Shown in pieces: positions 4,539 through 28,247 of a DNA stretch of 64,000 nt. The position numbers were made by a program, and so were the translations under genes. The stretch comes from Gammaproteobacteria bacterium (GTDB lineage: Bacteria; Pseudomonadota; Gammaproteobacteria; Eutrophobiales; Eutrophobiaceae): contig JANQJZ010000015.1 of assembly GCA_028281365.1 (NCBI GenBank), positions 13,879 through 77,878 of the forward strand. Direction: 5' to 3'. Positions within the stretch are counted from its first letter, which is position 1, and each line of letters opens with the position of its first letter. The notes under the pieces are model-generated. The model had not been told where the DNA came from and did not search any database. It saw only the letters and a program-made list of their open reading frames with translations.

Positions 4539-4997
4539 ATGTTTAATATTGTCTTATTTGAACCGGAAATCCCACCGAATACCGGTAACATTATACGTCT
4601 TTGTGCAAATACCGGCGCAAACCTGCATTTAATTCATCCGTTAGCTTTTGATATGGATGAAAAAAGCCTGCGTCGCGCCGGGCTGGATTATATCGATCAA
4701 TCGTTTGTACATCACTATGAAAATTATAGAGATTATCTTGAAAAATCGAAGCCCGCCTCACTCTATGCTATTTCAACCAAGGGCAAACAACATTATTCGG
4801 ATTGTACATTCAAGAATGGCGATAGTTTTATCTTTGGTCCGGAAACACGGGGTTTACCTGCAGAAATATTAAATGAGTTTGAGAGGAATAAAATTTTAAG
4901 AATTCCCATGTTAGAAAATAGTCGCAGTTTAAATCTGTCTAATGCCGCAAGTATTATTGTCTATGAAGCCTGGCGACAGAATAATTTCTTGAATTAG
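4539..4997 (+). CDS. trmL: tRNA (cytidine/uridine-2'-O)-methyltransferase TrmL, SpoU class.
   Basis: 152 aa. The N-terminus MFNIVLFEPEIPPNTGNIIRLCANTGANLHLIHPLAFDMD closely matches E. coli TrmL (YibK). Confidence 0.85.
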   Translation: MFNIVLFEPEIPPNTGNIIRLCANTGANLHLIHPLAFDMDEKSLRRAGLDYIDQSFVHHYENYRDYLEKSKPASLYAISTKGKQHYSDCTFKNGDSFIFGPETRGLPAEILNEFERNKILRIPMLENSRSLNLSNAASIIVYEAWRQNNFLN

Positions 4998-4999
4998 AA

Positions 5000-5452
5000 T
5001 TAAGGAGCATCAGTTACAGAAATATCAATACTTCTGGAAACATAGGTTATACCACCTAGTGTTCCTTTCGATGTAGTAATGCCTAAATTATAAACGCAAT
5101 ATGTTGATGATGCTTCTGTTATTGTATTTTCAGTACAACTTGTTACATTGCCTTGAAACCCGTTAGCACCACCCAAAGTAAAATTAATTGTTGCACCATT
5201 TATGGCAGGCGCGGTTGTACAACAATCTGTTCCACATGTACAAGCAGGCCTGTTTAATGCCTGATATATCGCCCATTCAGCAGTACTTCTGGTAGCAAAC
5301 CATGCTTGCATGGAACCAAGAGATTGAGTTGTATTCAAAGAACCAATATTCGATAGTGTTGCCATATAGATACCTAAAAGGGAAAATAACACAATCAAAA
5401 CAACTGCAATGATAGCGCTAAAACCTTTTTGCTTTTCCTGTCTGATATTCAT
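5000..5452 (-). CDS. MSHA minor pseudopilin, MshP/PilX-like.
   Basis: 150 aa. N-terminal hydrophobic pilin-like segment QKGFSAIIAVVLIVLFSLLGIYMATL lacks Glu5. It is the last gene of the pilin operon. Confidence 0.55.
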   Translation of the reverse strand: MNIRQEKQKGFSAIIAVVLIVLFSLLGIYMATLSNIGSLNTTQSLGSMQAWFATRSTAEWAIYQALNRPACTCGTDCCTTAPAINGATINFTLGGANGFQGNVTSCTENTITEASSTYCVYNLGITTSKGTLGGITYVSRSIDISVTDAP

Positions 5453-6345
5453 GGCTGATTATCAACATGGGCTTGTTGTAAGAGTGTTACTTCCTGACCC
5501 AGATTATTATCTCTCACTGTAATATCAAGAGTTACTAATCCTGCACGAGTGGCAGTACCTGGATCGTAGGTGAAGGTACATGCATTAATCATATTTACTA
5601 ATAAGTTATTTTCAGTCACGCCTGTAAAATCTCCTGGAACTGCGGTTGGCTGAGCTGAAAGAATTCGATATTGAGCCAAACGGCGAATTGTACCTCCATT
5701 ACAAACAAAACTGACAGGCGTATCCACAATTTGAAAACGTTGATTGGGCGACCGAAAAGGAAACCGAAATGTTGGAACATCTGAAGAATTATCAAATGTT
5801 ACACTATTTGCAGCAATACTTGTTATTGATGCTACATTATCTAAATCATATGCATCAGCATTGGTTTGATTAGTATTAAAAATAACCAGACAATCTACAA
5901 CATTATCTCTACAGTCAGTTCGGTTTCCTGCTGAGCCCGTTGCATCGATATTAGCAAAATTTTGTAATGTACCTAATACTTCAAAACAATCAGTTGCACT
6001 GGTAAAACTGAGTCTATTTGCAGCGATACTACCGCATGGTGCTGCTGCTCCCCCTGGATGAGTAAGATTTCTGTAACGACCACCGTCTACAGTCCGTAAA
6101 AACTCGATTGCAGTCGATCCTGATATTCTTACGCTATTAGGTAATGCCAGTCGGATCTCCCGCGTCATCCTCAACAATGCAGTCTCTGCTATATCAACAA
6201 GATTAGCCCGCTGTTCGACCTGTACAAATTGGATCATAGGTCCTCTAAGAATAGTAAAAAGGACAGTCGACAAAATTCCAATAATTAAGATAACGACGAT
6301 TAATTCAATTAAGGTAAAACCTTTTAAATGTCTATTAAGCAACAT
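5449..6345 (-). CDS. MSHA minor pilin, MshO-like.
   Basis: 298 aa. Class III signal and N-methylation motif KGFTLIELIVVILIIGIL. It overlaps neighbouring genes by 1-4 nt, consistent with an operon. Confidence 0.6.
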   Translation of the reverse strand: MLLNRHLKGFTLIELIVVILIIGILSTVLFTILRGPMIQFVQVEQRANLVDIAETALLRMTREIRLALPNSVRISGSTAIEFLRTVDGGRYRNLTHPGGAAAPCGSIAANRLSFTSATDCFEVLGTLQNFANIDATGSAGNRTDCRDNVVDCLVIFNTNQTNADAYDLDNVASITSIAANSVTFDNSSDVPTFRFPFRSPNQRFQIVDTPVSFVCNGGTIRRLAQYRILSAQPTAVPGDFTGVTENNLLVNMINACTFTYDPGTATRAGLVTLDITVRDNNLGQEVTLLQQAHVDNQP

Positions 6346-6965
6346 CAGAAGTTTGTCCTGTAACCCGTAACTGTTATATCCACATCGGCCAGGTTTGCAT
6401 GTGTCACTCTTACATCTATACGTAGACTTCGACCAGATGTTCCATTTAACCCGTTTAAGTTTGCGCCAGCAGCATCATTAATAGTTACCGTTACACTAAA
6501 ATCATTTAAATCTGTTATTTGATTGCCGGTCTGGTCTCTCACAACTGTATCTGGTAAATTAGTGTAATCACATACATCATCGAATAATGCACGGTTAGTA
6601 CCTTCAGAAGTTGGACCATTAGGCCCTCCACAGGTATTTGTCGATGCCGCTGCACATGCTGATTCTGTACAACCTTCACCTGCCGTAGTAGAAGAACACT
6701 CATTTAATCCATCGCCGTCCGGATCAAAATCTGAGTCACAGAATTGTTTTAAAGAAATTTCTTCCAAATAAGCACGTGCAATAGAATTGGCTTGTTGACG
6801 TATCATTGGATCAATACTATTGACTGTGGTCGCATTCATAAGTGTTGCAAATGAAGCAACACCGATACCTATTACAACTATGGCCACAACCAATTCTATC
6901 AATGAGAAACCTTTATTATTCATGAACGAATCCGGTATTTGCTTCAACAGTAACAGTTTGACCAC
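6345..6965 (-). CDS. MSHA minor pilin, MshD-like. The true start is probably the internal Met near position 6923.
   Basis: Prepilin motif NKGFSLIELVVAIVVIGIGVASFATL. Cys-rich C-terminal domain. Confidence 0.6.
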   Translation of the reverse strand: MVKLLLLKQIPDSFMNNKGFSLIELVVAIVVIGIGVASFATLMNATTVNSIDPMIRQQANSIARAYLEEISLKQFCDSDFDPDGDGLNECSSTTAGEGCTESACAAASTNTCGGPNGPTSEGTNRALFDDVCDYTNLPDTVVRDQTGNQITDLNDFSVTVTINDAAGANLNGLNGTSGRSLRIDVRVTHANLADVDITVTGYRTNF

Positions 6966-7353: not shown

Positions 7354-9216
7354 TTAATGTGACAACTCGTAACTAACTTTATTCAGTACCTTTGATCTAG
7401 GATACATCTTCAAATAATTGGATAAAAGTAACCTGGCTTGATTTTCTTTTCCAAATTTAACTAATGTACGAATATATTCGGCTTGTACTGTGTGATGATG
7501 CGGTTGCCATTCTAATACGCTCAAGAACCAACTTAATATTGTCTTCTCTGATTCAGTGTCATCGAGTAAATCTGATTTTTCTCTATGCAAGATAGCCCGT
7601 TGTAATCGACTTTGGACATCATAAATATCTATGTCCATGATTTTCTTATATAATTTATCCGCATGATTTGCTGCCTTTCGATCATTTTTAACCAAAGCAA
7701 TATTTTTCCAATAGTCAGCTTCTAATAAATAATTTTGTGTTTCTGCTGGTGAAAATCTTCTTGCTCTTTCAAATAACTGTGAAGCCTGATCAATCAGGCC
7801 TGCATTCAGCATACTAGTTCCTGCTCTATAACTAATTTGAGCGATAACGAAGTTAAACAGAAAGATTAATATACTGATACTAATCAAGATCCTGAATAGA
7901 CGAATAAAATTGACTTGAAGAATATTATTTAAATTGACATTAAAACTGTATAACTCCTTATTATTAACAAAAACTTTATTTAATATGGCTGTATATCCCG
8001 CAAAAATAAATAGTAAAATAGGGACATAAAAGACATAGCTCGCTAATGCATGAGTAAAATAACTTGTTAATCCCGATATAATTGCAATTACCCATATCTT
8101 TTCTTCACTACTCTTTATTTTCAGGTATTTAATTCCCTGCCAATAAGTTGTGAATATAATAAAAATGACTATCAATATTCCTGGCAAACCAAGTTCAAGC
8201 CAGTATTGCAGATAATCATTATGTACATAATGAGTGTACGTATATCTTAAATTTTCATAATAAAAATATATGAATTTAAAATAACCGATTCCATTTATCG
8301 GCTGTTCTTTTATTAATTCTAACGAGGTTTTTGCAAGCTCTATCCGTTGTTGTATTGATCTTGTTCCTTTATTTGTTATAGCTATATTTATACTGTTATC
8401 TAAAACCTGAATATTATTTTCTGGCTGTTGGGTAATCTCAATCGGACCAGAAACAATCATGGCCTTTGTGCCATACAGAATAAAAATAACAGCCAGAAAT
8501 CCTGCAAATATTTTCAACCACGTTATTAATGGTATTTTATTTTTAACAAATCTAAATAAAATAATTAGGCAAACTAATCCTGACACAAATGCTATCCAGC
8601 CTGCTCGACTCTGTGTGCTCACTAAACCGGCAAAAATTAAAATAAAACAAAGATAATTTTTAGATAATTCAGTTTTATTACTAAATAAGTAGATTGTAAT
8701 TAACGGTAAAAGAATAAGATTTAAGGCAGCTGCAAATGTGTTGGGATTAGCAAAAATTACACTTGCAGCCACTCCTTTATAATTTATCTGGGCATAATTA
8801 AAAATAAATTGAACTATTGCCCAGCAACTTAATATTGAAAAAATAATTACGATACCATAATAAACAAATTGAATTTGTTGTTTGTCCAGTACTGATATTA
8901 TGAAAAAACCTGAAAAAAAATAAGTAAGGAAAAAATATATAACAGGATAGTTGTTAAAATCAGATTTTGTTATGCTGTTAAAAATTAGTAGCATTAATAA
9001 TATAATACCAATTGCGGGTAATGAAAATGTAACTACTGAAAAGGGTCTTCTTACTAACCAAACAATAAGTATTAAAAATACACCTAGCCATAATCCCAGA
9101 TAGTCATGACTTGATGATACTGAAAGACAAAATATTAATCCTGAACAAATAAAAAAAGAGGGCCAAAAGACCCTCTTTTCAATACTAAACATATGACCCA
9201 CTCTTATCCAGAGCAC
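7354..9216 (-). CDS. Wzy_C / O-antigen-ligase-family membrane protein with a C-terminal TPR-like soluble domain. Candidate pilin O-oligosaccharyltransferase, PglL/TfpO-like.
   Basis: 620 aa with about 10-12 TM helices. Family signature YTHYVHNDYLQYWLELGLPG (H-N-x-Y-L-Q...E-x-G-x-x-G). C-terminal roughly 180-aa helical-repeat domain. Its start overlaps the stop of the major pilin gene by 13 nt. Confidence 0.6.
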   Translation of the reverse strand: MLWIRVGHMFSIEKRVFWPSFFICSGLIFCLSVSSSHDYLGLWLGVFLILIVWLVRRPFSVVTFSLPAIGIILLMLLIFNSITKSDFNNYPVIYFFLTYFFSGFFIISVLDKQQIQFVYYGIVIIFSILSCWAIVQFIFNYAQINYKGVAASVIFANPNTFAAALNLILLPLITIYLFSNKTELSKNYLCFILIFAGLVSTQSRAGWIAFVSGLVCLIILFRFVKNKIPLITWLKIFAGFLAVIFILYGTKAMIVSGPIEITQQPENNIQVLDNSINIAITNKGTRSIQQRIELAKTSLELIKEQPINGIGYFKFIYFYYENLRYTYTHYVHNDYLQYWLELGLPGILIVIFIIFTTYWQGIKYLKIKSSEEKIWVIAIISGLTSYFTHALASYVFYVPILLFIFAGYTAILNKVFVNNKELYSFNVNLNNILQVNFIRLFRILISISILIFLFNFVIAQISYRAGTSMLNAGLIDQASQLFERARRFSPAETQNYLLEADYWKNIALVKNDRKAANHADKLYKKIMDIDIYDVQSRLQRAILHREKSDLLDDTESEKTILSWFLSVLEWQPHHHTVQAEYIRTLVKFGKENQARLLLSNYLKMYPRSKVLNKVSYELSH

Positions 9217-9650
9217 AACCCATCAGGTAATGTCACTGTTCTCGTACTTGCATTACCGCCTACTGATACTTGTATGTTATCTACTGCAGCTGCATTACAA
9301 GATACAGTCAGACCAGTATCACTGCCACAAGTAACATTATTATCAGTAGTTGCATTAACAGTAAGGTTGATTTGGTCTGTGCCTACATCACAATCCACAT
9401 TACTCCAAATGCCACCTGCTGATGATGCAGATCCATTATTTGCAGCAAACTGTATGACTGCAGCAGATGCATATGCCCCAACAATACCATCAGCCACTGC
9501 TGATCTGGCATCACCCGAGACAGAGGCAAATCTGGGTAATGCTGTCGCTGCTAAAATACCTAATATGACAAATACCACGACTAACTCTATTAATGTAAAA
9601 CCTGATTGTTGTCTTTTCATAACAACCTCCACACCTGGGCCGCAGCCCAT
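9204..9650 (-). CDS. mshA: MSHA major pilin, MshA/MshB-like type IVa prepilin.
   Basis: 148 aa. MKRQQSGFTLIELVVVFVILGILAATALPRFASVSGDAR resembles V. cholerae MshA/MshB N-termini. S/T/A/G-rich C-terminal region with a Cys pair. Confidence 0.75.
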   Translation of the reverse strand: MGCGPGVEVVMKRQQSGFTLIELVVVFVILGILAATALPRFASVSGDARSAVADGIVGAYASAAVIQFAANNGSASSAGGIWSNVDCDVGTDQINLTVNATTDNNVTCGSDTGLTVSCNAAAVDNIQVSVGGNASTRTVTLPDGLCSG

Positions 9651-19844: not shown

Positions 19845-20800
19845 AAGGCGACTGCCTCCTGACGTAATGCTGACCCTATCGCCAATAAACAGCGTGATTG
19901 CACTAGAGGTGGAATGTTTTCAGGCACATCGATCAACTCGTTAACATCCAGAAACCTTGCAGGAATCGCTAACTGCTCTGACAGATATTCCATCACACCA
20001 GGTATTTCCTTTCCTAATGGAGTCATCACAATTGATGAAACCTGTGGTTGCGAAAAGTGACTCTCGTAATAATCCATGGAACGTTGAACTTCAATAACAA
20101 TGTTATCTAACCAACGTTGACAGGATTCATCATCCATTACACTTAAAACTGATTCAGGTAATATGGATGTACCCACGTTTATTGTTCTGGATAAATAAAG
20201 TGAAGATTGTTTTGTAATAGTGATCAATCCCTGATGTTGCCCAACATAAATTAACGCAACGCCACCCACATCCTCGGGTAACATAGCAGCAATATTCCGT
20301 AATGCTAATTCCGGAATATCAATAATATTTAGTTTTAAACCGGCATTATTAAGTTGACCGATTAATTCTCTTACCCGATTTGATTGCGCTACAACGGCAT
20401 ACATCATTTTGTTTTTGCCTGCAGCTTTATAAGAGGGCACTTCAAACACATCGACGACTGCATCATCAATATGAAAATCGATTAAATCTTTAACCCGCCA
20501 ACGAATTGCTGCACGTAGCTCTTCGGGTTGAACGTCTGGCGCCTCAACTAATAATAAGTTGTAATCACCCAGTTCCAGTGAACTGACACATTCGTATTCA
20601 TCAAGATTATATTGCTTTGTTATTCGAACCAACTCAGCATCACGAATGGAAATATTTTCTATCTCTTGTAATTCACATAGTTCAAGAGAAGGCGGCAGGT
20701 CTTTTTCACGACGCACGCGGGCTATCGTTATCGCGTTCTCATCCGAACAAACAGCGACTTTAGCATCTTTCTTAAGTCTCTTTTTGAAAAAGTCCAGCAA
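19841..20800 (-). CDS. mshI: MshI N-terminal module, a PilM-like actin-fold protein. First gene of the secretion operon.
   Basis: 319 aa cytoplasmic protein with PilM/FtsA-like organisation. A 306-bp AT-rich promoter region lies upstream. Confidence 0.65.
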   Translation of the reverse strand: MLDFFKKRLKKDAKVAVCSDENAITIARVRREKDLPPSLELCELQEIENISIRDAELVRITKQYNLDEYECVSSLELGDYNLLLVEAPDVQPEELRAAIRWRVKDLIDFHIDDAVVDVFEVPSYKAAGKNKMMYAVVAQSNRVRELIGQLNNAGLKLNIIDIPELALRNIAAMLPEDVGGVALIYVGQHQGLITITKQSSLYLSRTINVGTSILPESVLSVMDDESCQRWLDNIVIEVQRSMDYYESHFSQPQVSSIVMTPLGKEIPGVMEYLSEQLAIPARFLDVNELIDVPENIPPLVQSRCLLAIGSALRQEAVAL

Positions 20801-21106
20801 CTTATTACCCCTATTAGTATTTTAGTCTAATATTCTGCTAATATTAGTTGTCGCTAAAAAAAGACGATATTACCCCACTATTTTAACAATAAACTTAAGT
20901 TTTTCACCCTAAGTTATTAATGTCAAATAAATTTATGCTGTTAGAGCTTGAAAATATCAGGCTGAAAAAGAAATAGTAAAAACCACTAAATATATGAAAA
21001 GGTAAAATCAATACCGGACTTGCAAAAGGGAATGTGGAATTAAAGGGTATTAAGTCGATATGACTGACATTTAAGTACTTGATTTAAATATATTTTATTT
21101 CAAATA

Positions 21107-24100
21107 TTACCAGGGTTCCCGTATGTATATTAATTGTCTTGGCCCTTGGAACAAACCAAATTCGGCCCGACCAGACGGATCGACATTAAATGGCCCATCC
21201 CCGGCTTCATCAGCCCAGTCATATTGCAACCAATCCATATTGAGCCCACCTGTACTCAAATCCAGGGTGGTATCAATGAAACCGGTACAACCTGCAGCAG
21301 GGGCTGCAACATCAAAAGATAAGCCCCCGGAACCACTGGCGAATGTGGCATTTGCCATAGTTGCAGTTGCCACACCTGTACCGCCGCATGTTCCTGCATT
21401 AGTGATATCAACATTACCGTCGGTTTCACCTGTTTCAACTGCACTTGTTAAGCTTAAATCCGTTGTGGCAATAGCAGTACATCCATCATCGGTATTTGTA
21501 ATAAAGCTCTGGGTAGTACCGTCATAATATTGTGCTTCAAGCGGTACAGGTAAAGATAACAATTCAGAACCTACCACATTACCAATGAATAACCGACCGA
21601 GACGCAAATTAGCACCCGAAATGTTACTGATAACAAAATTATCAGCGGCAATAGCCTCGCAAGTACCATTATTGTTTCCGTCATAACAGATACCATCATT
21701 ATCTGTTAGATCAAATTCATCACTATTAGTACCGGAAAACGCTGTAAAACTAACATCAGCATCTGCTGCAAACGGTGCCACCAGTTCACTAACACGATCG
21801 TAGCTAAACACATCACCACTGCTTCCACTAGTTAGTGTGTAAAAAGCAACTCCGTCTAAATCATTATGATCCGACAATGTCTCGTTTACCGTATCTACGC
21901 CGGTAAAATTTGTTTGTGAGGCAGTTAATCCAGAGTTGTCACTATAACTATGTTGTATGTTTACAGATTCAGGATCTGCACCAAGAGTTGTAAGTTTCCA
22001 AAATGCCATACCATAATTCAGTGTTGTCTCTGGTGTTCCCGCACCATTCATCGCCGTCACCGTTAAAACCGGCGCGGTATTATAGTAGAAAGGCTGGTCC
22101 ATATAGGTAAAGGTACTATTACAACTATCCGCAAAATCAGGCGTATTCGCACTAACAGCAAAATGATCCGGTGTAAACCGGCCGATATTGATACTGGTAG
22201 ATGGACTTATGGTATCGCCTAAATAAGATATTGCTGTTGCCGGCGCCGTTGCATCACCGCTGGCAGTAATGGTGAATACGCCAACTTCATCAATACTCTG
22301 AGTGTGAGTATCTGTTCCTTTGTCTGCATTGAGTATATCGATGGAAGTGACTAATAGGTCACCGTCTACACCACCCGATGGCTCTATAACATTTGAATTT
22401 AACTCTATTCCAGTTATTTCAAAATTAGGTGTAGTGACATTTCCGGAACCGCCTGCAGTACAATAATCACTATCTGCATCACCATCGACACTATCCCAGG
22501 TAACCCCATTGATTGTTAAATTAAATGCCTCACTTGCTTTTCTAAATACAGTGCATGTTGCACTTGCTGGCATACAATCAGCATTGGCATCAGTCGTTTC
22601 AACACAGATGCCCGCAGGTTTTACAACAAAGGCATTACTCATGCCGATGTTATAAACCATGTTTGGAGGATCAATATCAAAACGAGCATGCAAGGTAACC
22701 TGGCCAGCATCATCATAAACAAAACGTAACGGTGTTTTTGAATCGGCATCAAAATCAAACTGGACACCGGTATAACTGGTCACTGAACCATTAGGATTAC
22801 CAGCAATAGCTTGCAAGGTAGCGCTATCGTCTTCAACCTCTATCTGGACCGTCTCACAGGCTGTCGGGTTATTACATTCGGAAGCCAATTCAACAGTGAC
22901 GTTATTTTCACTTTCAAAAACACCCTGGCATTCAACTGCACTGACTGTTTCAATCGCCTGCAAATAAAGGTCCTGAAAACCCGTGCCTGCCGTGTTGGAC
23001 TGTTTACCAGATAACTTGGCTGAAATAGATACAGGGACAGGTGGGGTAGAATTATCGACGACTCGAAAAACCGCATCACGAAATTCGATCTCAGGATCTT
23101 CTGCATCGCTGTTATCACCGTTACCTTTTTCCATATCACCATTGTCATCAGATAAGTCAATATCAATGGTTAATGCCGTTAATTGTCTCAATTCCAATGT
23201 AACACTGCTTTCTTCTGTGCCACTGGGCCAGGTATAAGTCACCGGATTACCAGCTCCCCCGAATGTACCATTTCCAGTGACTACACTTTCCCAGGTACCA
23301 GTATTGGTTGTTGTACCATCAATATAAGCATTAATGGTTAATACAGTACCGCCTAAAACATTAACAACATTATCACTGCTATCATGGGCTGTAATAGTGA
23401 CCTGTGATGCTTCACAAGTTAGACCGATTGCACCATTAGGATATGTAATCTCATAGTGATCAACCTGATCTAGTACGATTTCTAAATCTAACGTTAATGC
23501 ATCAACATCTTCCCCGCCGGATGTAAAATTGGCTTCAGAGAAGTAGATAGAGGCAGTATCTGTATTACGGTTATACAATACAACATCACCGTCCAGAACT
23601 GCTGTCCCACGGATCGTGTTATTGTTTGCAATACTGAATAAAATCAGATTCGAATCATCATTTAATAGATGCACACCATCAATATCTTCATCACCACCTG
23701 CATTAGGAATTAGATTCGTCGTTGCACTTTCATCCAGAAACATAGTGGCACAGGTATTTGTCGGATCCCATTCAACCAGATCATCGTCTATGAAATTTAA
23801 ATTTCCACCACCACACATTGGCAATGTTGCATTTCCTGTAGTTGATAAAATAATATTCCCGTTTCCGCGTACATAAACCGCATCAACGGTTTCATCAGCG
23901 GTAAAATTAGTCTCGGCAAATAATGTTCCAACAAAATTATATACACCTGCAGAACCTGAAGGCGTCACTTCAACAATATCGCCATTTGCAAAAGTATTTC
24001 CACCAATAGTTGCGCCACCGGCGGTGGTCACTGCAAGATTACCGTTAGTATATTGATGTATACCATTCAGTGTTTCATTCGCGGCAAAAGTTGCGTCGTC

Positions 24101-26260
24101 AAAAAATAGGGTCCCTGAATCATTTAGAATATCGTATTCAACTGCTTCATCCTGATCGATGGCCTGTCCACCAAGCGTTGAATTATTATTAGTGCTGACA
24201 ATGATATTTCTTAGATCGGCGTACCAAATCTCAACCTGATGACAATATGTATCATCGACCAGGACTGTTGCAGCCTGGGTTAACGAAATATTGCCATAAG
24301 TAACACTGCTTACCCGGCCCGTACCACATCCAGAAGGTTCCTCTATCGTTATACCAACGATAAGTTTTGTATTGATCGTATCATTAGTAACAAAAGTATG
24401 TGTCCAACTTAATGTAGATGTTGTGGCTGCACCGGTATCATTACTGGCCGCTGCATCAAAGGCAATCGTTGAACCCGCTGCCGGAGCAACGGCAATAATG
24501 GCATGTGCAATCCGATTTGAGTCAGGTGGATTATCAAAATCCTGTGTCATTGAATCCAAACCGGCCGTTGCAACCGGTTTGGTACTCATTGCACCGGTCG
24601 AACTGTCTGCTGAAGTATCCCAACGTTCTGTCTGCCCCGCACCTGGTGTAAATGAACCGGGCTGACCATCGCCAACCGTATCAATCAACCAGGCGTTGTT
24701 CGTTAGGGTCGTGATATTGGTTGTAATATCATTATCAGCATCGGTTGTTTCGGTACCAGTTGCCGTAGCCTCGGGGGTACCAAGAGATGTACCGGTAAGG
24801 CTGATTGATCCGCCATTAATATTATCAACGTTACCGGTTAGCGTAACTGTAACCGTATTAGTAATTACAATCGGCGTTAAAGCCACGAGTTGAGCAACAC
24901 CGGTATCCGCATTACCTGCAACGGTTGCCGTTTTGTTACCTGTTGCACCAGTAGCAGCTTGTAAAACATCATTCATTTCCAGTGATATACCTGCCGCATT
25001 CGGTGTTGTTAATGAGGCAACATCGACCTGTTCTGTCATGCCAGCAGGTGGCGTCCACGTTTCTGATGAACTAAAACTATGCGTACTGACTATCATGGTA
25101 TTTGCTACGGTTGTATTAATACTATTTGCAGTATGACTGGTGCCAGATACTGTCGTGTTACCGCCCGATGCATCGATAGGACTAGTCGTATCGACCCCCC
25201 TATACGTAATAATACCACCCGCAGTTCCTGTAATTGCAACACCAGAAAAAGCCCAAACATATGCAGTCGGTTCTGTAGAAGTCGCTACCCGATAATAAGT
25301 CGCTTGCGAATTACTATTTCCAGCTGCCTGATTAACACGGTTTATTAATGTCCATCCGGCTGGAGCTGTTATTGTTGTTGTCGAAGGTCTTACAGAAATT
25401 GCTGCAAGCATGACATCATTTGTTGTTGTCCCAGTAGGAACATTGATAGATATACCATCAAGCGAGTTATCAGGTGTCAGTGCAAACAACACACCGATAC
25501 TCTCGTCAGTACCAAGGTTTTGTGGCCAGGTAAATGCCCCCTTTGCGCCTGCTGTTGCTTCCTGCCGGTAATTAAGAGAAATCGCACTGTCTCTATTAGC
25601 AGCCGAAGCGGAATCAAACGATTCAGAAAAACCATCTGCCTCGGTAACCACGGCATTATCATTGATAAACGTAACGGCAATAGACATTGCAGTGGCAGTA
25701 GTCGTTGTCTCGGTACCTGTCGTGACGTTTGCTGTATTTTGCGTGCTTGAATTTCCTGCAAGTATGGGATTGGTCTCAAACGGTGCAGTTGTATTGACAC
25801 CATCGAACCGGGAAATCCGACCTCGTAATGATTGACAATTAGCAGGGCCGCCAGTTGATGTTGACGTTATCGTATTTGGATCACCCCCGGTAGCAATACG
25901 CCAAAAAATATAACCGCCAAGATCCTGGTTACCATCAACACCATGGTACCCGGAATAATATAGGTTCCAGCCTGGCATTGTTACATTGGTCGTGTTTTCC
26001 CTGATTACGGCTACAGCGATTAATAGATCACCAACACTACCTGCAGGTATTGTTGGCGAAATATTTCCACAATTATTTCTCGAAACAAATGTCCCGGTGC
26101 CAACATGATTAATGATACCAACCGTAGTTCCGCTTTGTTCTGATGCAACCGTTGAGATTGCGGCATATGCCGGTAATGCATGGATTGTAAAGACACTAAA
26201 TAAAAAACAAACACAATATTTGCGAATAACAAATATAAAATTTTTAGTGCCTGTTTTCAT
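21107..26260 (-). CDS. Giant secreted Thr/Gly/Asn/Asp-rich repeat protein (1717 aa). Candidate MshQ-like pilus-associated adhesin.
   Basis: Uninterrupted 5.15-kb ORF. Sec signal MKTGTKNFIFVIRKYCVCFLFSVFTIHALPAYA. Low-complexity T/G/S/N/D-rich beta-type sequence. Three internal repeats (FDDATFAANETLNG / LFAETNFTADETVDA / IYFSEANFTSGGEDVDA). Co-operonic with the ECF sigma/anti-sigma pair, and mshQ is missing from its canonical place. Confidence 0.6.
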   Translation of the reverse strand: MKTGTKNFIFVIRKYCVCFLFSVFTIHALPAYAAISTVASEQSGTTVGIINHVGTGTFVSRNNCGNISPTIPAGSVGDLLIAVAVIRENTTNVTMPGWNLYYSGYHGVDGNQDLGGYIFWRIATGGDPNTITSTSTGGPANCQSLRGRISRFDGVNTTAPFETNPILAGNSSTQNTANVTTGTETTTTATAMSIAVTFINDNAVVTEADGFSESFDSASAANRDSAISLNYRQEATAGAKGAFTWPQNLGTDESIGVLFALTPDNSLDGISINVPTGTTTNDVMLAAISVRPSTTTITAPAGWTLINRVNQAAGNSNSQATYYRVATSTEPTAYVWAFSGVAITGTAGGIITYRGVDTTSPIDASGGNTTVSGTSHTANSINTTVANTMIVSTHSFSSSETWTPPAGMTEQVDVASLTTPNAAGISLEMNDVLQAATGATGNKTATVAGNADTGVAQLVALTPIVITNTVTVTLTGNVDNINGGSISLTGTSLGTPEATATGTETTDADNDITTNITTLTNNAWLIDTVGDGQPGSFTPGAGQTERWDTSADSSTGAMSTKPVATAGLDSMTQDFDNPPDSNRIAHAIIAVAPAAGSTIAFDAAASNDTGAATTSTLSWTHTFVTNDTINTKLIVGITIEEPSGCGTGRVSSVTYGNISLTQAATVLVDDTYCHQVEIWYADLRNIIVSTNNNSTLGGQAIDQDEAVEYDILNDSGTLFFDDATFAANETLNGIHQYTNGNLAVTTAGGATIGGNTFANGDIVEVTPSGSAGVYNFVGTLFAETNFTADETVDAVYVRGNGNIILSTTGNATLPMCGGGNLNFIDDDLVEWDPTNTCATMFLDESATTNLIPNAGGDEDIDGVHLLNDDSNLILFSIANNNTIRGTAVLDGDVVLYNRNTDTASIYFSEANFTSGGEDVDALTLDLEIVLDQVDHYEITYPNGAIGLTCEASQVTITAHDSSDNVVNVLGGTVLTINAYIDGTTTNTGTWESVVTGNGTFGGAGNPVTYTWPSGTEESSVTLELRQLTALTIDIDLSDDNGDMEKGNGDNSDAEDPEIEFRDAVFRVVDNSTPPVPVSISAKLSGKQSNTAGTGFQDLYLQAIETVSAVECQGVFESENNVTVELASECNNPTACETVQIEVEDDSATLQAIAGNPNGSVTSYTGVQFDFDADSKTPLRFVYDDAGQVTLHARFDIDPPNMVYNIGMSNAFVVKPAGICVETTDANADCMPASATCTVFRKASEAFNLTINGVTWDSVDGDADSDYCTAGGSGNVTTPNFEITGIELNSNVIEPSGGVDGDLLVTSIDILNADKGTDTHTQSIDEVGVFTITASGDATAPATAISYLGDTISPSTSINIGRFTPDHFAVSANTPDFADSCNSTFTYMDQPFYYNTAPVLTVTAMNGAGTPETTLNYGMAFWKLTTLGADPESVNIQHSYSDNSGLTASQTNFTGVDTVNETLSDHNDLDGVAFYTLTSGSSGDVFSYDRVSELVAPFAADADVSFTAFSGTNSDEFDLTDNDGICYDGNNNGTCEAIAADNFVISNISGANLRLGRLFIGNVVGSELLSLPVPLEAQYYDGTTQSFITNTDDGCTAIATTDLSLTSAVETGETDGNVDITNAGTCGGTGVATATMANATFASGSGGLSFDVAAPAAGCTGFIDTTLDLSTGGLNMDWLQYDWADEAGDGPFNVDPSGRAEFGLFQGPRQLIYIREPW

Positions 26261-26264
26261 AATA

Positions 26265-26672
26265 TTAATATGATTCTCTCTGATAGATTATTGGTGAATC
26301 ATTATCTCGATAACCGGTATTGTTGCTCTCACCAGCCTCCGTTTTTTGATCATCATCAACCACTCCGGGTCCGGATTCATTCATCTTACCATTGCCTTGC
26401 AGTTGTTTTTCTATAATTTCCGGTTGCTGTTTACTCACTATCATATCTCCGATCCACCATGCTGCACTTGCAAAACCACCCGCTAATAATAAAACGATCC
26501 ACCACGGTATTTTGTTCAGGCTTTTTTGAGTCCTGGTTCTCTTTGCATGAAGTAGTAACCTGCTTTCAATAGTCGACAGTCTTGATTGGTCGGCGTCAGG
26601 CATGGATTCATAAACCTGTACAATCAGGTGTTCAACCTCTGACTCTGAAACAGGTGGAAATTTATGTGTCAC
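26265..26672 (-). CDS. Putative single-pass anti-sigma factor.
   Basis: 135 aa. Cytoplasmic N-terminus, one TM (WWIVLLLAGGFASAAWWI), short periplasmic tail. Overlaps the ECF sigma gene by 11 nt and ends 4 nt before the giant gene. Confidence 0.5.
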   Translation of the reverse strand: MTHKFPPVSESEVEHLIVQVYESMPDADQSRLSTIESRLLLHAKRTRTQKSLNKIPWWIVLLLAGGFASAAWWIGDMIVSKQQPEIIEKQLQGNGKMNESGPGVVDDDQKTEAGESNNTGYRDNDSPIIYQRESY

Positions 26673-27195
26673 TTGAGTCCTCTTGCCATCGCTGCTTCAG
26701 CTTATTAATGATGGCTGCACATTGTCTACGTACTGTGCCTTCCGGTAATTCCAGCATTGTTGCGATCTCTTTATGTGTTAACCCAACTCTATAACGCATG
26801 AACAACAGATTTTGTTCATCCTGGGGAAGTTTTTTTATTAATCTTTCAAGATAAAGTTGTTGATCCTTATATTCAGGATCCTGGCCCGCTTGTTGTTCTA
26901 TATCTATATCAATATTATCGACAGGTGACGCTTTCTCTCTACGATAAGCATCAATATGTAAATTGATCGCTATTCGATATAACAACGCTTTGGGAGATCG
27001 TAAATCTTTACAAACAACCTGAATAAATTTAAGAAAAGCATCCGCAAGCAGGTCATACGCGGCATCCGGATTACACCCCCTGTTTTTTAAAAATTGCCAC
27101 AGACGAGGTGACTCGGAACGATAAAAGCGGCTGAATGCATTTGTATCTGCATCTTTACAATATTGTTCGAGTAATTGTTTCGAATTGTCCTGCAT
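26662..27195 (-). CDS. ECF-type RNA polymerase sigma-70 family factor.
   Basis: 177 aa. Region 2 (AAYDLLADAFLKFIQ...LYRIAINLHIDAYRR) and region 4 HTH (LTHKEIATMLELPEGTVRRQ). Confidence 0.8.
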   Translation of the reverse strand: MQDNSKQLLEQYCKDADTNAFSRFYRSESPRLWQFLKNRGCNPDAAYDLLADAFLKFIQVVCKDLRSPKALLYRIAINLHIDAYRREKASPVDNIDIDIEQQAGQDPEYKDQQLYLERLIKKLPQDEQNLLFMRYRVGLTHKEIATMLELPEGTVRRQCAAIINKLKQRWQEDSSDT

Positions 27196-27254
27196 AACAC
27201 ATAACCTGTTGCAGGAAAGAGATTATCGTAGAACAGGATTAAAAAGAATATGAA

Positions 27255-28247
27255 TTAGTTTATTTCCGCACGCGGATCACGGGTTAATAATGCCTGTACT
27301 GCATCTTTTGGTTCAACTTCGCCATTGAGTACTCGCATTACCTGCTCGCTGATTGGCATTTCTATCTGATGTTTCCTTGCTAATTGTTCAACCTCGATAG
27401 CAGTTTTGATACCTTCGATCGCTTGTCCAATCTTTTTTTGTGCTTCTTCCAAAGAAAGTCCTTCAGCCAACAATAGACCCAAACTACGATTACGTGATTG
27501 GTTATCGGTACAGGTTAAAACTAAATCCCCCAGACCTGCCAAACCCATAAAGGTTTCCTGCTTTGCACCAAGTGCCATACCCAATCGCATTATCTCGGCA
27601 AGCCCCCGGGTAATTAATGCTGATCGCGTGTTTGCACCAAAACCTAAACCATCTGCAATACCTGCTGCAATTGCCATTACGTTTTTAACAGCACCACCAA
27701 CCTGAACACCAATATAATCATCATGTGTATAAATTCGAAATAACTCGTTATGAAACAAATTAGCAAAGTCCTGTGCAACGTTATCATCAGTTGCAGTAAT
27801 CGTTACCGCAGTCGGATAGCCGGCAGCAACTTCTTTTGCAAACGAGGGTCCGGATAATATTGCAGTAGGGCAATCAAGCACTTCTTTTACAACTTCATGA
27901 TTTAATTTTTGTGTGCCCGATTCAAAACCTTTGCAAGCCAAACAAATTTTTATATCGGAAAATGAATTTAATGAATCCAGGCTGGTACGCAGACCATGAC
28001 ATGGTACCGCATTCACAAATAGAGAAGTGTCTGCAGGTACCTGATCAATAGATTCGACTGGAAAAAGGTTTTCAGGAAATTTGACTGAAGGAATATATCG
28101 TTCATTGGAACGGTTATTTTGTAAATCTTTAACAAGATCTGTATCAATGTCCCAAAGATAAACCTGGTGTTGGTTACGAGCCAAAACTAATGCCAATGCA
28201 GTGCCCCACGATCCTGCACCAAGCACTAGTACTGTCTTCATCGACAT
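27255..28247 (-). CDS. gpsA: NAD(P)H-dependent glycerol-3-phosphate dehydrogenase.
   Basis: 330 aa. N-terminal Rossmann VLVLGAGSWGTALALVLARN. secB-gpsA synteny. Confidence 0.9.
   Translation of the reverse strand: MSMKTVLVLGAGSWGTALALVLARNQHQVYLWDIDTDLVKDLQNNRSNERYIPSVKFPENLFPVESIDQVPADTSLFVNAVPCHGLRTSLDSLNSFSDIKICLACKGFESGTQKLNHEVVKEVLDCPTAILSGPSFAKEVAAGYPTAVTITATDDNVAQDFANLFHNELFRIYTHDDYIGVQVGGAVKNVMAIAAGIADGLGFGANTRSALITRGLAEIMRLGMALGAKQETFMGLAGLGDLVLTCTDNQSRNRSLGLLLAEGLSLEEAQKKIGQAIEGIKTAIEVEQLARKHQIEMPISEQVMRVLNGEVEPKDAVQALLTRDPRAEIN

Follow-up and report, generated by a model that had tools for sequence, protein, structure and literature searches.

In a 64,000-nucleotide stretch of a gammaproteobacterial metagenome-assembled genome (MAG; assembly GCA_028281365.1, contig JANQJZ010000015.1, positions 13,879 to 77,878), hereafter called the window, three consecutive genes encode an extracytoplasmic function (ECF) sigma factor, a small anti-sigma-like membrane protein and a giant secreted protein. 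They stand beside a locus for a type IV pilus of the mannose-sensitive hemagglutinin (MSHA) type, in a genome with a GC content of 39%. The giant protein belongs, by its domains, to the MshQ family. The C-terminus of the small protein copies the peptide with which MshQ is predicted to dock onto the minor pilin MshP. The triad of ECF sigma factor, small single-pass protein and mshQ is conserved in more than 30 loci. We consider it likely that the tails of MshQ and of the small protein compete for one binding partner, and the arrangement suggests that the cell checks whether its pilus tips have adhesin.

The expected role of such a tail comes from work on related pili. The last 10-12 residues of PilC/PilY1 complete the beta-sheet of a PilK-family minor pilin, and pilus initiation requires this tail, which in fusion with PilK also suffices in part (Ellison et al., PNAS 2026, PMC13533445). 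MshQ of V. cholerae has been proposed as the equivalent of PilC/PilY1, and in an AlphaFold prediction its tail adds a strand to MshP likewise (PMC13533445). Loss of mshQ in V. cholerae lowers the number of surface MSHA pili (PMC7096442).

A C-terminal peptide common to the small protein and MshQ

The small protein is built of zones that differ sharply in conservation. Among 44 close homologues (alignment A5), a cytoplasmic part of about 50 residues is moderately conserved, the transmembrane segment is near-invariant, an acidic linker of about 45-50 residues is hypervariable, and the C-terminus is again near-invariant, reading S-P-[IV]-I-Y-Q-R-E-[SG]-[FY]. Within this terminus I129 is invariant and S126, Y130, R132 and E133 are each conserved in at least 90% of homologues; the 45 residues before it are hypervariable. 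A profile search of 1.84 billion representative proteins recovered 185 clusters of the small protein, 103 of them at E-values up to 1e-10, and nearly all of 131 distant representatives retain the tail.

The same peptide closes the MshQ family (IYxRExW/Y), at matching distances from the carboxyl end. An alignment of 18 diverse members of DUF6701, the family to which MshQ belongs, shows no variation at I622, R625 and E626 and hardly any at Y623. The giant protein of the window ends in FGLFQGPRQLIYIREPW and has the family motif ..G.F.G....IYxRE.. at its free carboxyl end. Set side by side, small protein first, the two tails read IIYQRESY and LIYIREPW in the window, TIYRREVY and QIYLRERY in locus L113, IIYQREDY and TIYIREVY in L114, VIDQRELY and TIYLRELY in L115, and TIYRKENY and HIYIRERY in L116. 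The last residue of the small protein tracks that of its cognate MshQ: where MshQ ends in W the small protein ends in F or Y, in L113-L116 both end in Y, and in L115 both end in RELY.

This likeness is specific. Across 6750 open reading frames (ORFs) from 84 loci, the C-terminal pattern [IVLFYM][IVL]Y.RE.{1,4}$ matched 46 MshQ-type ORFs, all 6 anti-sigma-like ORFs and 0 others. A position-specific scoring matrix trained on 54 MshQ tails, all from outside the window clade, was scored on 6661 C-termini; with two unlabelled MshQ proteins set aside, the anti-sigma tails were the best of the non-MshQ C-termini. In the window the tail of the small protein scored 21.8 bits, against 14.1 bits for its own MshQ.

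Selection on the tail acts at the level of the peptide, because synonymous codons at the conserved residues vary freely (Arg, AGR 15 and CGN 13; Ile, ATC 13, ATT 13 and ATA 5; Glu, GAA 17 and GAG 12). We had also considered that the tail is conserved as DNA, as the ribosome-binding site of mshQ. This was ruled out by the free synonymous codons and by retention of the tail where 16-131 nt separate it from mshQ.

An earlier reading of the window from its sequence only, made before any database search (hereafter the sequence-only reading), had placed the pilus or its adhesin under a sigma factor responsive to envelope signals. Such a generic input no longer appears the best reading. In its periplasmic part the small protein conserves one feature only, a copy of the docking tail of MshQ, and this suggests that the pilus tip complex is what is sensed. 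The sequence-only reading had also called ECF control undescribed for MSHA systems, and our literature search agreed, finding no paper that links an ECF sigma factor to MSHA pili. ECF sigma/anti-sigma pairs and MshQ are each already known separately; a regulator with a copy of its target's docking peptide, or an ECF pair dedicated to the tip adhesin of a type IV pilus, was not found in that search.

The MshQ-family protein and its locus

The giant protein matches DUF6701 (PF20419) over residues 1099-1715 with an E-value of 5.1e-106 and 356 bits, covering positions 38-576 of the 577 in the profile; an identical protein, P0001, carries precomputed matches to the sub-domains PF28243, PF28247 and PF28238. 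Because this match is near full-length and the I, R and E of the family tail are kept, the 1717-residue protein is to be classed as an MshQ homologue. A database search returned 198 relatives, all with the same DUF6701 sub-domains and many named 'MSHA biogenesis protein MshQ' by the Joint Genome Institute (JGI). A place at the pilus tip and binding to MshP are putative roles, assigned on the pattern of PilC/PilY1 and of the MshQ-MshP structure that AlphaFold predicts for V. cholerae.

Outside its DUF6701 part the protein is unusual for the family. The N-terminal 1100 residues are atypical, with no LamG (PF13385) jelly-roll domain anywhere in the giant protein; DUF6701 was the sole match in a Pfam scan, so no PilY1/PilC beta-propeller is present, and no sequence relative was found in the PDB. 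Among the nine closest homologues, identity is 65-80% over the N-terminal 950 residues and 25-50% over the DUF6701 part, and the segments at residues 476-700 and 961-1098 are about 30% or about 80% identical depending on the homologue. This mosaic conservation suggests recombination or exchange of adhesin modules between lineages. A Sec-type leader (..HALPAYA/AIS) and the composition (T 13.9%, A 10.0%, G 9.7%, S 8.0%, D 7.9%, N 7.8%) agree with the earlier description of a signal-peptide-bearing protein rich in T, G, N and D. It had also been called a repeat protein, which holds for two internal domain duplications and fails for short tandem repeats, of which there are none.

The sequence-only reading had left open whether the giant protein is a displaced MshQ or a distinct adhesin recruited to the pilus locus. 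The profile match, the homologues named MshQ and the IYxRE strand favor the former, with LamG domains missing, and the DUF6701 match and the family tail led us to reject the latter. Its strongest form, an ECF-regulated adhesin separate from the pilus whose tail resembles that of MshQ by chance, would draw on the N-terminal 1100 residues, which lack LamG and are akin to generic binding modules, and on the position of the gene away from the canonical site after mshP. It has to contend, however, with a DUF6701 match at 5e-106 over 620 residues together with the family tail, with the lack of any further MshQ candidate in the window, with the same module standing directly after mshP in L113-L116, and with a tail motif that occurs in 0 of about 6600 unrelated ORFs and is under peptide-level selection. 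We regard this possibility as very remote, and the candidate of a pilus-unrelated adhesin was discarded on the domain match, the tail and the synteny of L113-L116.

The surrounding genes make up a complete MSHA-type locus, running on the same strand downstream of the giant gene from mshI to mshG and on through the pilins to mshD (6345..6965), mshO (5449..6345) and mshP. By domain content these include a PilM_2-like MshI, a secretin with Secretin_N_2, a T2SSE ATPase with MshEN and five N_methyl pilins. The MshP-like protein has a prepilin-like N-terminus (KG/FSAI), and its C-terminus is similar to that of MshP in L113-L115. The giant gene lies 15 kb from mshP, ahead of mshI, and the slot after mshP that mshQ takes in V. 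cholerae is not occupied; no second ORF of DUF6701 size exists within the 64-kb window. The claim that mshQ has gone from its canonical site, with the pilin operon ending at the mshP-like gene and abutting convergent trmL, is thus borne out, and the coordinates and spacings given earlier for the three ORFs proved exact (Table 1).

Table 1. Positions of the triad, its main sequence features and the related pilus genes in the window.
Feature	Position	Strand	Remarks
ECF sigma gene	26662..27195	-	177 aa
Anti-sigma-like gene	26265..26672	-	135 aa, GTG start; 11-nt overlap with the sigma stop
Transmembrane segment of the small protein, PWWIVLLLAGGFASAAWWIGD	26445..26507	-	most conserved block of alignment A5
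Small-protein tail SPIIYQRESY-COOH, proposed mimic of the MshQ docking strand	26268..26297	-	translation
MshQ-family giant gene	21107..26260	-	1717 aa; putative MSHA pilus tip adhesin
N-terminal duplicated beta-sandwich pair, aa 34-475	24836..26161	-	giant protein
DUF6701 (MshQ core) region, aa 1099-1715	21116..22966	-	Pfam PF20419; precomputed DUF6701_2nd, _3rd and _4th matches
Giant-protein C-terminus QLIYIREPW-COOH, strand predicted to be donated to MshP	21110..21136	-	translation
Candidate ECF-type promoter of the sigma operon	27221..27252	-	ATTC, 17 nt, CGATAA; in the 59-nt gpsA-sigma spacer
Probable mshI-operon promoter/operator block	20863..20935	-	perfect TTGACA at 20921-20926, then ACTTA..TAAGT inverted repeat
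MshP-like minor pilin (PilK/GspK position)	5000..5452	-	150 aa; last gene of the mshC-D-O-P pilin operon
trmL (SpoU-family methylase)	4539..4997	+	convergent, abuts the mshP-like gene

One further gene in this locus drew our attention. A 620-residue protein with a Wzy_C domain (O-antigen-ligase-like; E-value 2e-22) and tetratricopeptide repeats is encoded at 7354..9216 on the minus strand, following the gene of an MshA-like major pilin (9204..9650, minus strand) with a 13-nt overlap. The same pairing occurs in L068, L072 and L113. The Wzy_C protein is a candidate pilin O-glycosyltransferase (PglL/TfpO-like) of MSHA loci.

The regulatory pair, its history and its promoters

Every locus with the small protein has a sigma gene directly upstream that overlaps its own (the window, L002/3, L006, L007, L009, L013, L085-L108 and L111), and in the same loci, wherever the contig continues, the gene downstream encodes a DUF6701 protein or a long ORF with a signal peptide. 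The gap between the anti-sigma-like gene and mshQ is 4 nt (TATT) in the window and -4 to 21 nt in most related loci. The tight coupling of the ECF pair to the giant gene that had been read from the 11-nt overlap and the 4-nt gap therefore stands as described. In the divergent loci L113-L116 (4 of 4 placed on contigs) the genes follow the canonical order mshO-mshP-sigma-antisigma-mshQ. The sigma factor of L115, which lies between mshP and mshQ, is 50% identical to that of the window. Judged from this synteny, the triad is an old module that travels with mshQ.

Genome loci for a survey of mshQ position were recovered through the DUF6701 domain, with a 6-sequence alignment as the query (n = 79). 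In these the MshQ-type gene was found after mshP, before mshC, between mshP and mshI, and directly before mshI; a place after mshP is accordingly typical of the family rather than a defining trait. Within the window clade, which consists of gammaproteobacterial MAGs, the order rhodanese-secB-gpsA-[sigma-antisigma]-mshQ-mshI...mshP-trmL is conserved. By gene order, then, mshQ before mshI is an old lineage feature, common to the whole clade and to other lineages. The sequence-only reading had offered, as one option, that mshQ was relocated and put under dedicated ECF control. It was right that mshQ is in a noncanonical place before mshI; the relocation is not peculiar to this genome but clade-wide. 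The ECF pair is also not a by-product of relocation, because the same pair sits between mshP and mshQ in L113-L116, and the proposed tie between the two does not survive.

The history of the pair within the clade was read from a tree of gpsA, the neighboring gene. All of its deep branches carry sigma-positive loci, and four sigma-negative loci are nested among these. The pair is ancestral in the window clade and has disappeared at least 3-4 times, in two cases with remnants left behind. Both regulatory genes are gone together in L001 and L017. In L005 codons 1-32 of the sigma gene are fused by a deletion to the anti-sigma transmembrane segment, and the tail SPLIYQREDF is still readable; in L004/L008 only the last 12 anti-sigma codons remain before the mshQ start.

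Several loci had unusual arrangements. In L109 and L110, gpsA, the sigma gene and a truncated anti-sigma gene (residues 4-90 only) are followed by convergent trmL, and the mshQ..mshP locus is absent between the same flanks, as if a stretch of about 22 kb had been cleanly removed together with part of the anti-sigma gene. In L113 (10398..17488), two tandem DUF6701 proteins follow one sigma/anti-sigma pair, one of 1345 residues with LamG and one of 950 residues with Big_1/Invasin_D3, and both end in IYLRERY, so that one module may serve alternative tip adhesins. In L085 (1482..7581) the MshQ-like gene is split into ORFs of 1040 and 895 residues, with a small opposite-strand ORF at the junction. 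A frameshift, a fault in the assembly or a genuinely divided adhesin could each account for the split.

The sigma factor has Sigma70_r2 at residues 24-88 and Sigma70_r4_2 at residues 114-158 of its 177 residues, that is, regions 2 and 4 only, and scores 77.2 bits against TIGR02937 (sigma70-ECF; cut-off, 42.9 bits). This domain content classes it as a sigma-70-type factor of the ECF group (group 4). Upstream of orthologous sigma genes we found a motif, aGTTCTTTTAT-N10-CTGCGTTAC-TCTTTTGCATAG (GTTC, 17 nt, CGTTA), once per locus in about 12 orthologous loci, including L005, L013, L088, L091, L092, L094, L095, L097 and L104; an independent match in L105 scored 42.7 bits. In L087 (about 9400-9480), five tandem AAGGTTC heptamers stand directly upstream of the sigma gene, over the GTTC -35-like site of its relatives.

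Scanning with a position weight matrix of this motif gave no second copy before mshI, elsewhere in the window or in 112 loci. In a consensus scan of 20700-27500, neither sigma-70 promoters nor terminators exceeded the shuffled expectation, and no terminator-like site lay between the triad genes. The 306-nt spacer between mshQ and mshI has only one strongly conserved part, a block of about 70 nt that is near-identical in eight loci, sigma-less ones included; the rest of the spacer is unalignable. This block is probably the promoter of the mshI operon with the operator of a regulator. Because no second copy of the motif precedes mshI, and because mshI has its own block with or without the sigma pair, the sigma factor most likely controls the adhesin rather than the whole pilus machine. 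Of the earlier claim that pilus or adhesin expression is tied to the ECF factor, the coupling to the adhesin holds, and the extension to the whole pilus falls away, as the mshI operon keeps its own promoter block.

The small protein has one hydrophobic segment, PWWIVLLLAGGFASAAWWIG (residues 56-75), and the lysine/arginine patch KRTRTQKSLNK before it indicates an N-in topology. P56, W57, W58, V60, L61, G65, A70 and W72 of this segment are invariant in alignment A5. The conservation of the helix (IPWWIVLLLAGGFAxAAWW in alignments A5 and A8) goes beyond what a plain anchor needs. The cytoplasmic part has the conserved pattern LExLIxQVYESMPxxDQSRLSxIExRL, and AlphaFold2 predicts helices at residues 10-22 and 29-47 of the small protein, with a predicted local distance difference test (pLDDT) score below 50 for the linker at residues 82-124. 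Pfam searches gave no match to RseA_N/RseA_C or FecR, and the cytoplasmic part of the window protein has no Cys, so the HxxxCxxC motif of zinc-binding anti-sigma (ZAS) proteins is missing from it. Sub-threshold matches to the helix-plus-transmembrane C-terminal end of DotU/TssL of the type VI secretion system occur in 38 of the 44 members. In existing annotations the small proteins are 'hypothetical' or, once, 'RodZ', and the giant proteins are labelled just 'DUF6701'; the assignments made here mend both.

From the gene overlap, the single-pass N-in topology and the conserved cytoplasmic part, we infer that the small protein is the cognate anti-sigma factor. It might instead be a membrane-anchored placeholder or chaperone that lends MshP its missing strand for as long as MshQ is absent, either to keep MshP folded or to prevent too early an initiation, with the sigma factor regulated otherwise. 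The failure to detect an anti-sigma domain would fit such a role, as would the partial sufficiency of the PilC strand when fused to PilK, which implies that a tethered strand could act alone. However, the ECF sigma gene and the small gene are translationally coupled in every case and disappear together, and 50 conserved cytoplasmic residues would be needless in a purely periplasmic placeholder. The canonical anti-sigma arrangement is moreover just this one, with a single-pass N-in protein encoded right after the ECF sigma factor. We therefore hold the placeholder role to be quite unlikely.

Proposed feedback and its relation to known systems

We propose the following scheme for a small protein that acts as an anti-sigma factor. 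The sigma factor, the anti-sigma factor and mshQ would form one operon, with the dedicated ECF sigma factor driving all three, and the small cytoplasmic helical domain of the anti-sigma factor presumably holds the sigma factor. By analogy with the published docking of PilC/PilY1 and MshQ tails (PMC13533445), we infer that the tail of the small protein binds MshP, in the same slot as the docking strand of MshQ. When MshP is made and MshQ is scarce, vacant MshP would capture the tethered tail. Capture would inactivate the anti-sigma factor, by proteolysis or by pulling, and free the sigma factor, which would raise transcription of its own gene, the anti-sigma gene and mshQ. New MshQ would then fill MshP and the anti-sigma factor would be restored, a negative feedback by which the supply of adhesin is adjusted to the tip complexes. 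We give about an even chance to this full chain, in which MshQ and a tethered mimic of it compete for MshP, so that the sigma factor is informed of adhesin vacancy.

The shared tail might alternatively be read by a periplasmic PDZ protease, DegS-like or a tail-specific protease such as Prc/CtpA, and not by MshP. Free C-terminal signals of this type are what PDZ domains recognize, as when the C-termini of outer membrane proteins (YxF) switch on the cleavage of RseA by DegS. On this view unassembled MshQ tails would trigger cleavage of the anti-sigma factor or compete for it, and the sigma factor would still report the assembly state of MshQ. Both tails do end in an aromatic residue at a free carboxyl, after an alternating hydrophobic pattern, and the strongly conserved transmembrane helix would suit regulated intramembrane proteolysis. 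A CtpB-like S41 PDZ protease is encoded about 5 kb away in a conserved gpmI-M23-ctpA cluster; this is, however, a housekeeping cluster that is present also where the sigma pair is absent. Moreover, the tail has eight conserved positions, including the buried-strand-like I-Y-x-R-E, versus the three residues of a typical PDZ ligand, and the sole published function for such a tail is strand addition to PilK/MshP. On balance we think recognition by a PDZ protease rather unlikely.

Several points weigh against the proposed feedback. That the MshQ tail docks on MshP has been predicted with AlphaFold for V. cholerae, not shown by experiment (PMC13533445). The strand is also deeply buried and is added before the trimer forms in the published model (PMC13533445), and given such burial a simple reversible competition may be too naive. 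The direction of the feedback is a guess, and sigma binding by the small protein is deduced from genomic context. No Pfam family passed the threshold in any of the 44 members, a profile search found no PDB relative of the small protein, and its AlphaFold2 model is of low confidence (mean pLDDT, 58). At the DNA level, the syntenic window copy of the sigma-upstream motif, at 27221-27252, is weak (5.2 bits, rank 14 in the window) and not significant alone; L113-L115, with only 8-27 nt between mshP and the sigma gene, showed none. Finally, several lineages lost the pair and kept mshQ in place, indicating that this control is dispensable.

A variant of the scheme would replace exchange by force. 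The anti-sigma tail would stand in for MshQ in the MshD-MshO-MshP initiation complex. A pilus without adhesin would begin to form while still attached to the anti-sigma factor, and the extension motor would pull on the 50-residue linker, extracting or exposing the anti-sigma factor and releasing the sigma factor, as a force-coupled checkpoint for an adhesin-less pilus. We view this variant as improbable.

If the tail does bind MshP, it would give independent evolutionary support for strand addition in MSHA pili and a new mode of input to an ECF sigma factor, namely ligand mimicry or competition for an assembly intermediate. To our knowledge, sensing by ECF anti-sigma factors beyond proteolytic stress cascades and TonB transducers is poorly mapped, and we know of little, outside the FimS-AlgR system considered below, on how the amounts of tip adhesin and minor-pilin primer are set against one another. 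Tail binding to MshP would also make the pair a compact sensor module, spread over 185 clusters from environmental Proteobacteria, with a possible second use as a synthetic reporter for the assembly of pili. The locus is in any case a simple, testable design: a regulator with a tethered copy of its target protein's docking peptide.

The closest relative of the giant protein among known systems is V. cholerae MshQ, with which it shares the DUF6701 core, the IYxRE strand at the extreme C-terminus, large size, secretion and an MSHA-type locus. The window protein is, however, longer (1717 versus about 1200 residues) and lacks LamG, having instead two duplicated beta-sandwich pairs and a mosaic N-terminal 950 residues. 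Its gene lies before mshI and after the ECF pair, whereas V. cholerae mshQ is described as lying immediately downstream of mshDOP. In the PilC/PilY1-PilK pair, too, a free C-terminal peptide of about 10 residues completes a minor-pilin sheet and licenses assembly, and the window MshQ-like protein keeps such a tail. Without the beta-propeller of PilY1, by Pfam, it is a functional analogue only; and the window has a second, regulatory protein with the same tail on a flexible membrane tether, for which PMC13533445 holds nothing alike.

Feedback from pilus tip complexes onto their own genes has a precedent in P. aeruginosa, where PilY1 and the minor pilins repress their own operon via FimS-AlgR (Marko et al. 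2018, PMC5979040). There, as proposed here, tip-complex proteins act through an inner-membrane sensor. That sensor is, however, a two-component histidine kinase, and the regulated unit is the whole minor-pilin operon rather than the adhesin alone (PMC5979040); no ligand-mimic peptide is known there.

Two regulatory comparisons concern the window pair itself. FecI/FecR, a well-established system, is likewise a dedicated ECF pair beside its one target operon that answers to a specific envelope machine. The window pair differs in having no FecR domain and no TonB-dependent transducer in the gene lists of its neighborhood, and its periplasmic part is a disordered tail of 60 residues rather than a folded sensor domain. 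The equally well-established Sigma-E/RseA/DegS cascade resembles our proposal in that an ECF sigma factor is held by a single-pass N-in anti-sigma factor and that an envelope protein left unassembled gives the signal through its free C-terminal peptide. The window pair lacks homology to RseA_N/RseA_C, and its predicted regulon is a single adhesin gene. Most distinctively, in the Sigma-E cascade the peptide is on the client and is read by the PDZ domain of a protease, whereas here the anti-sigma factor itself carries the client-like peptide.

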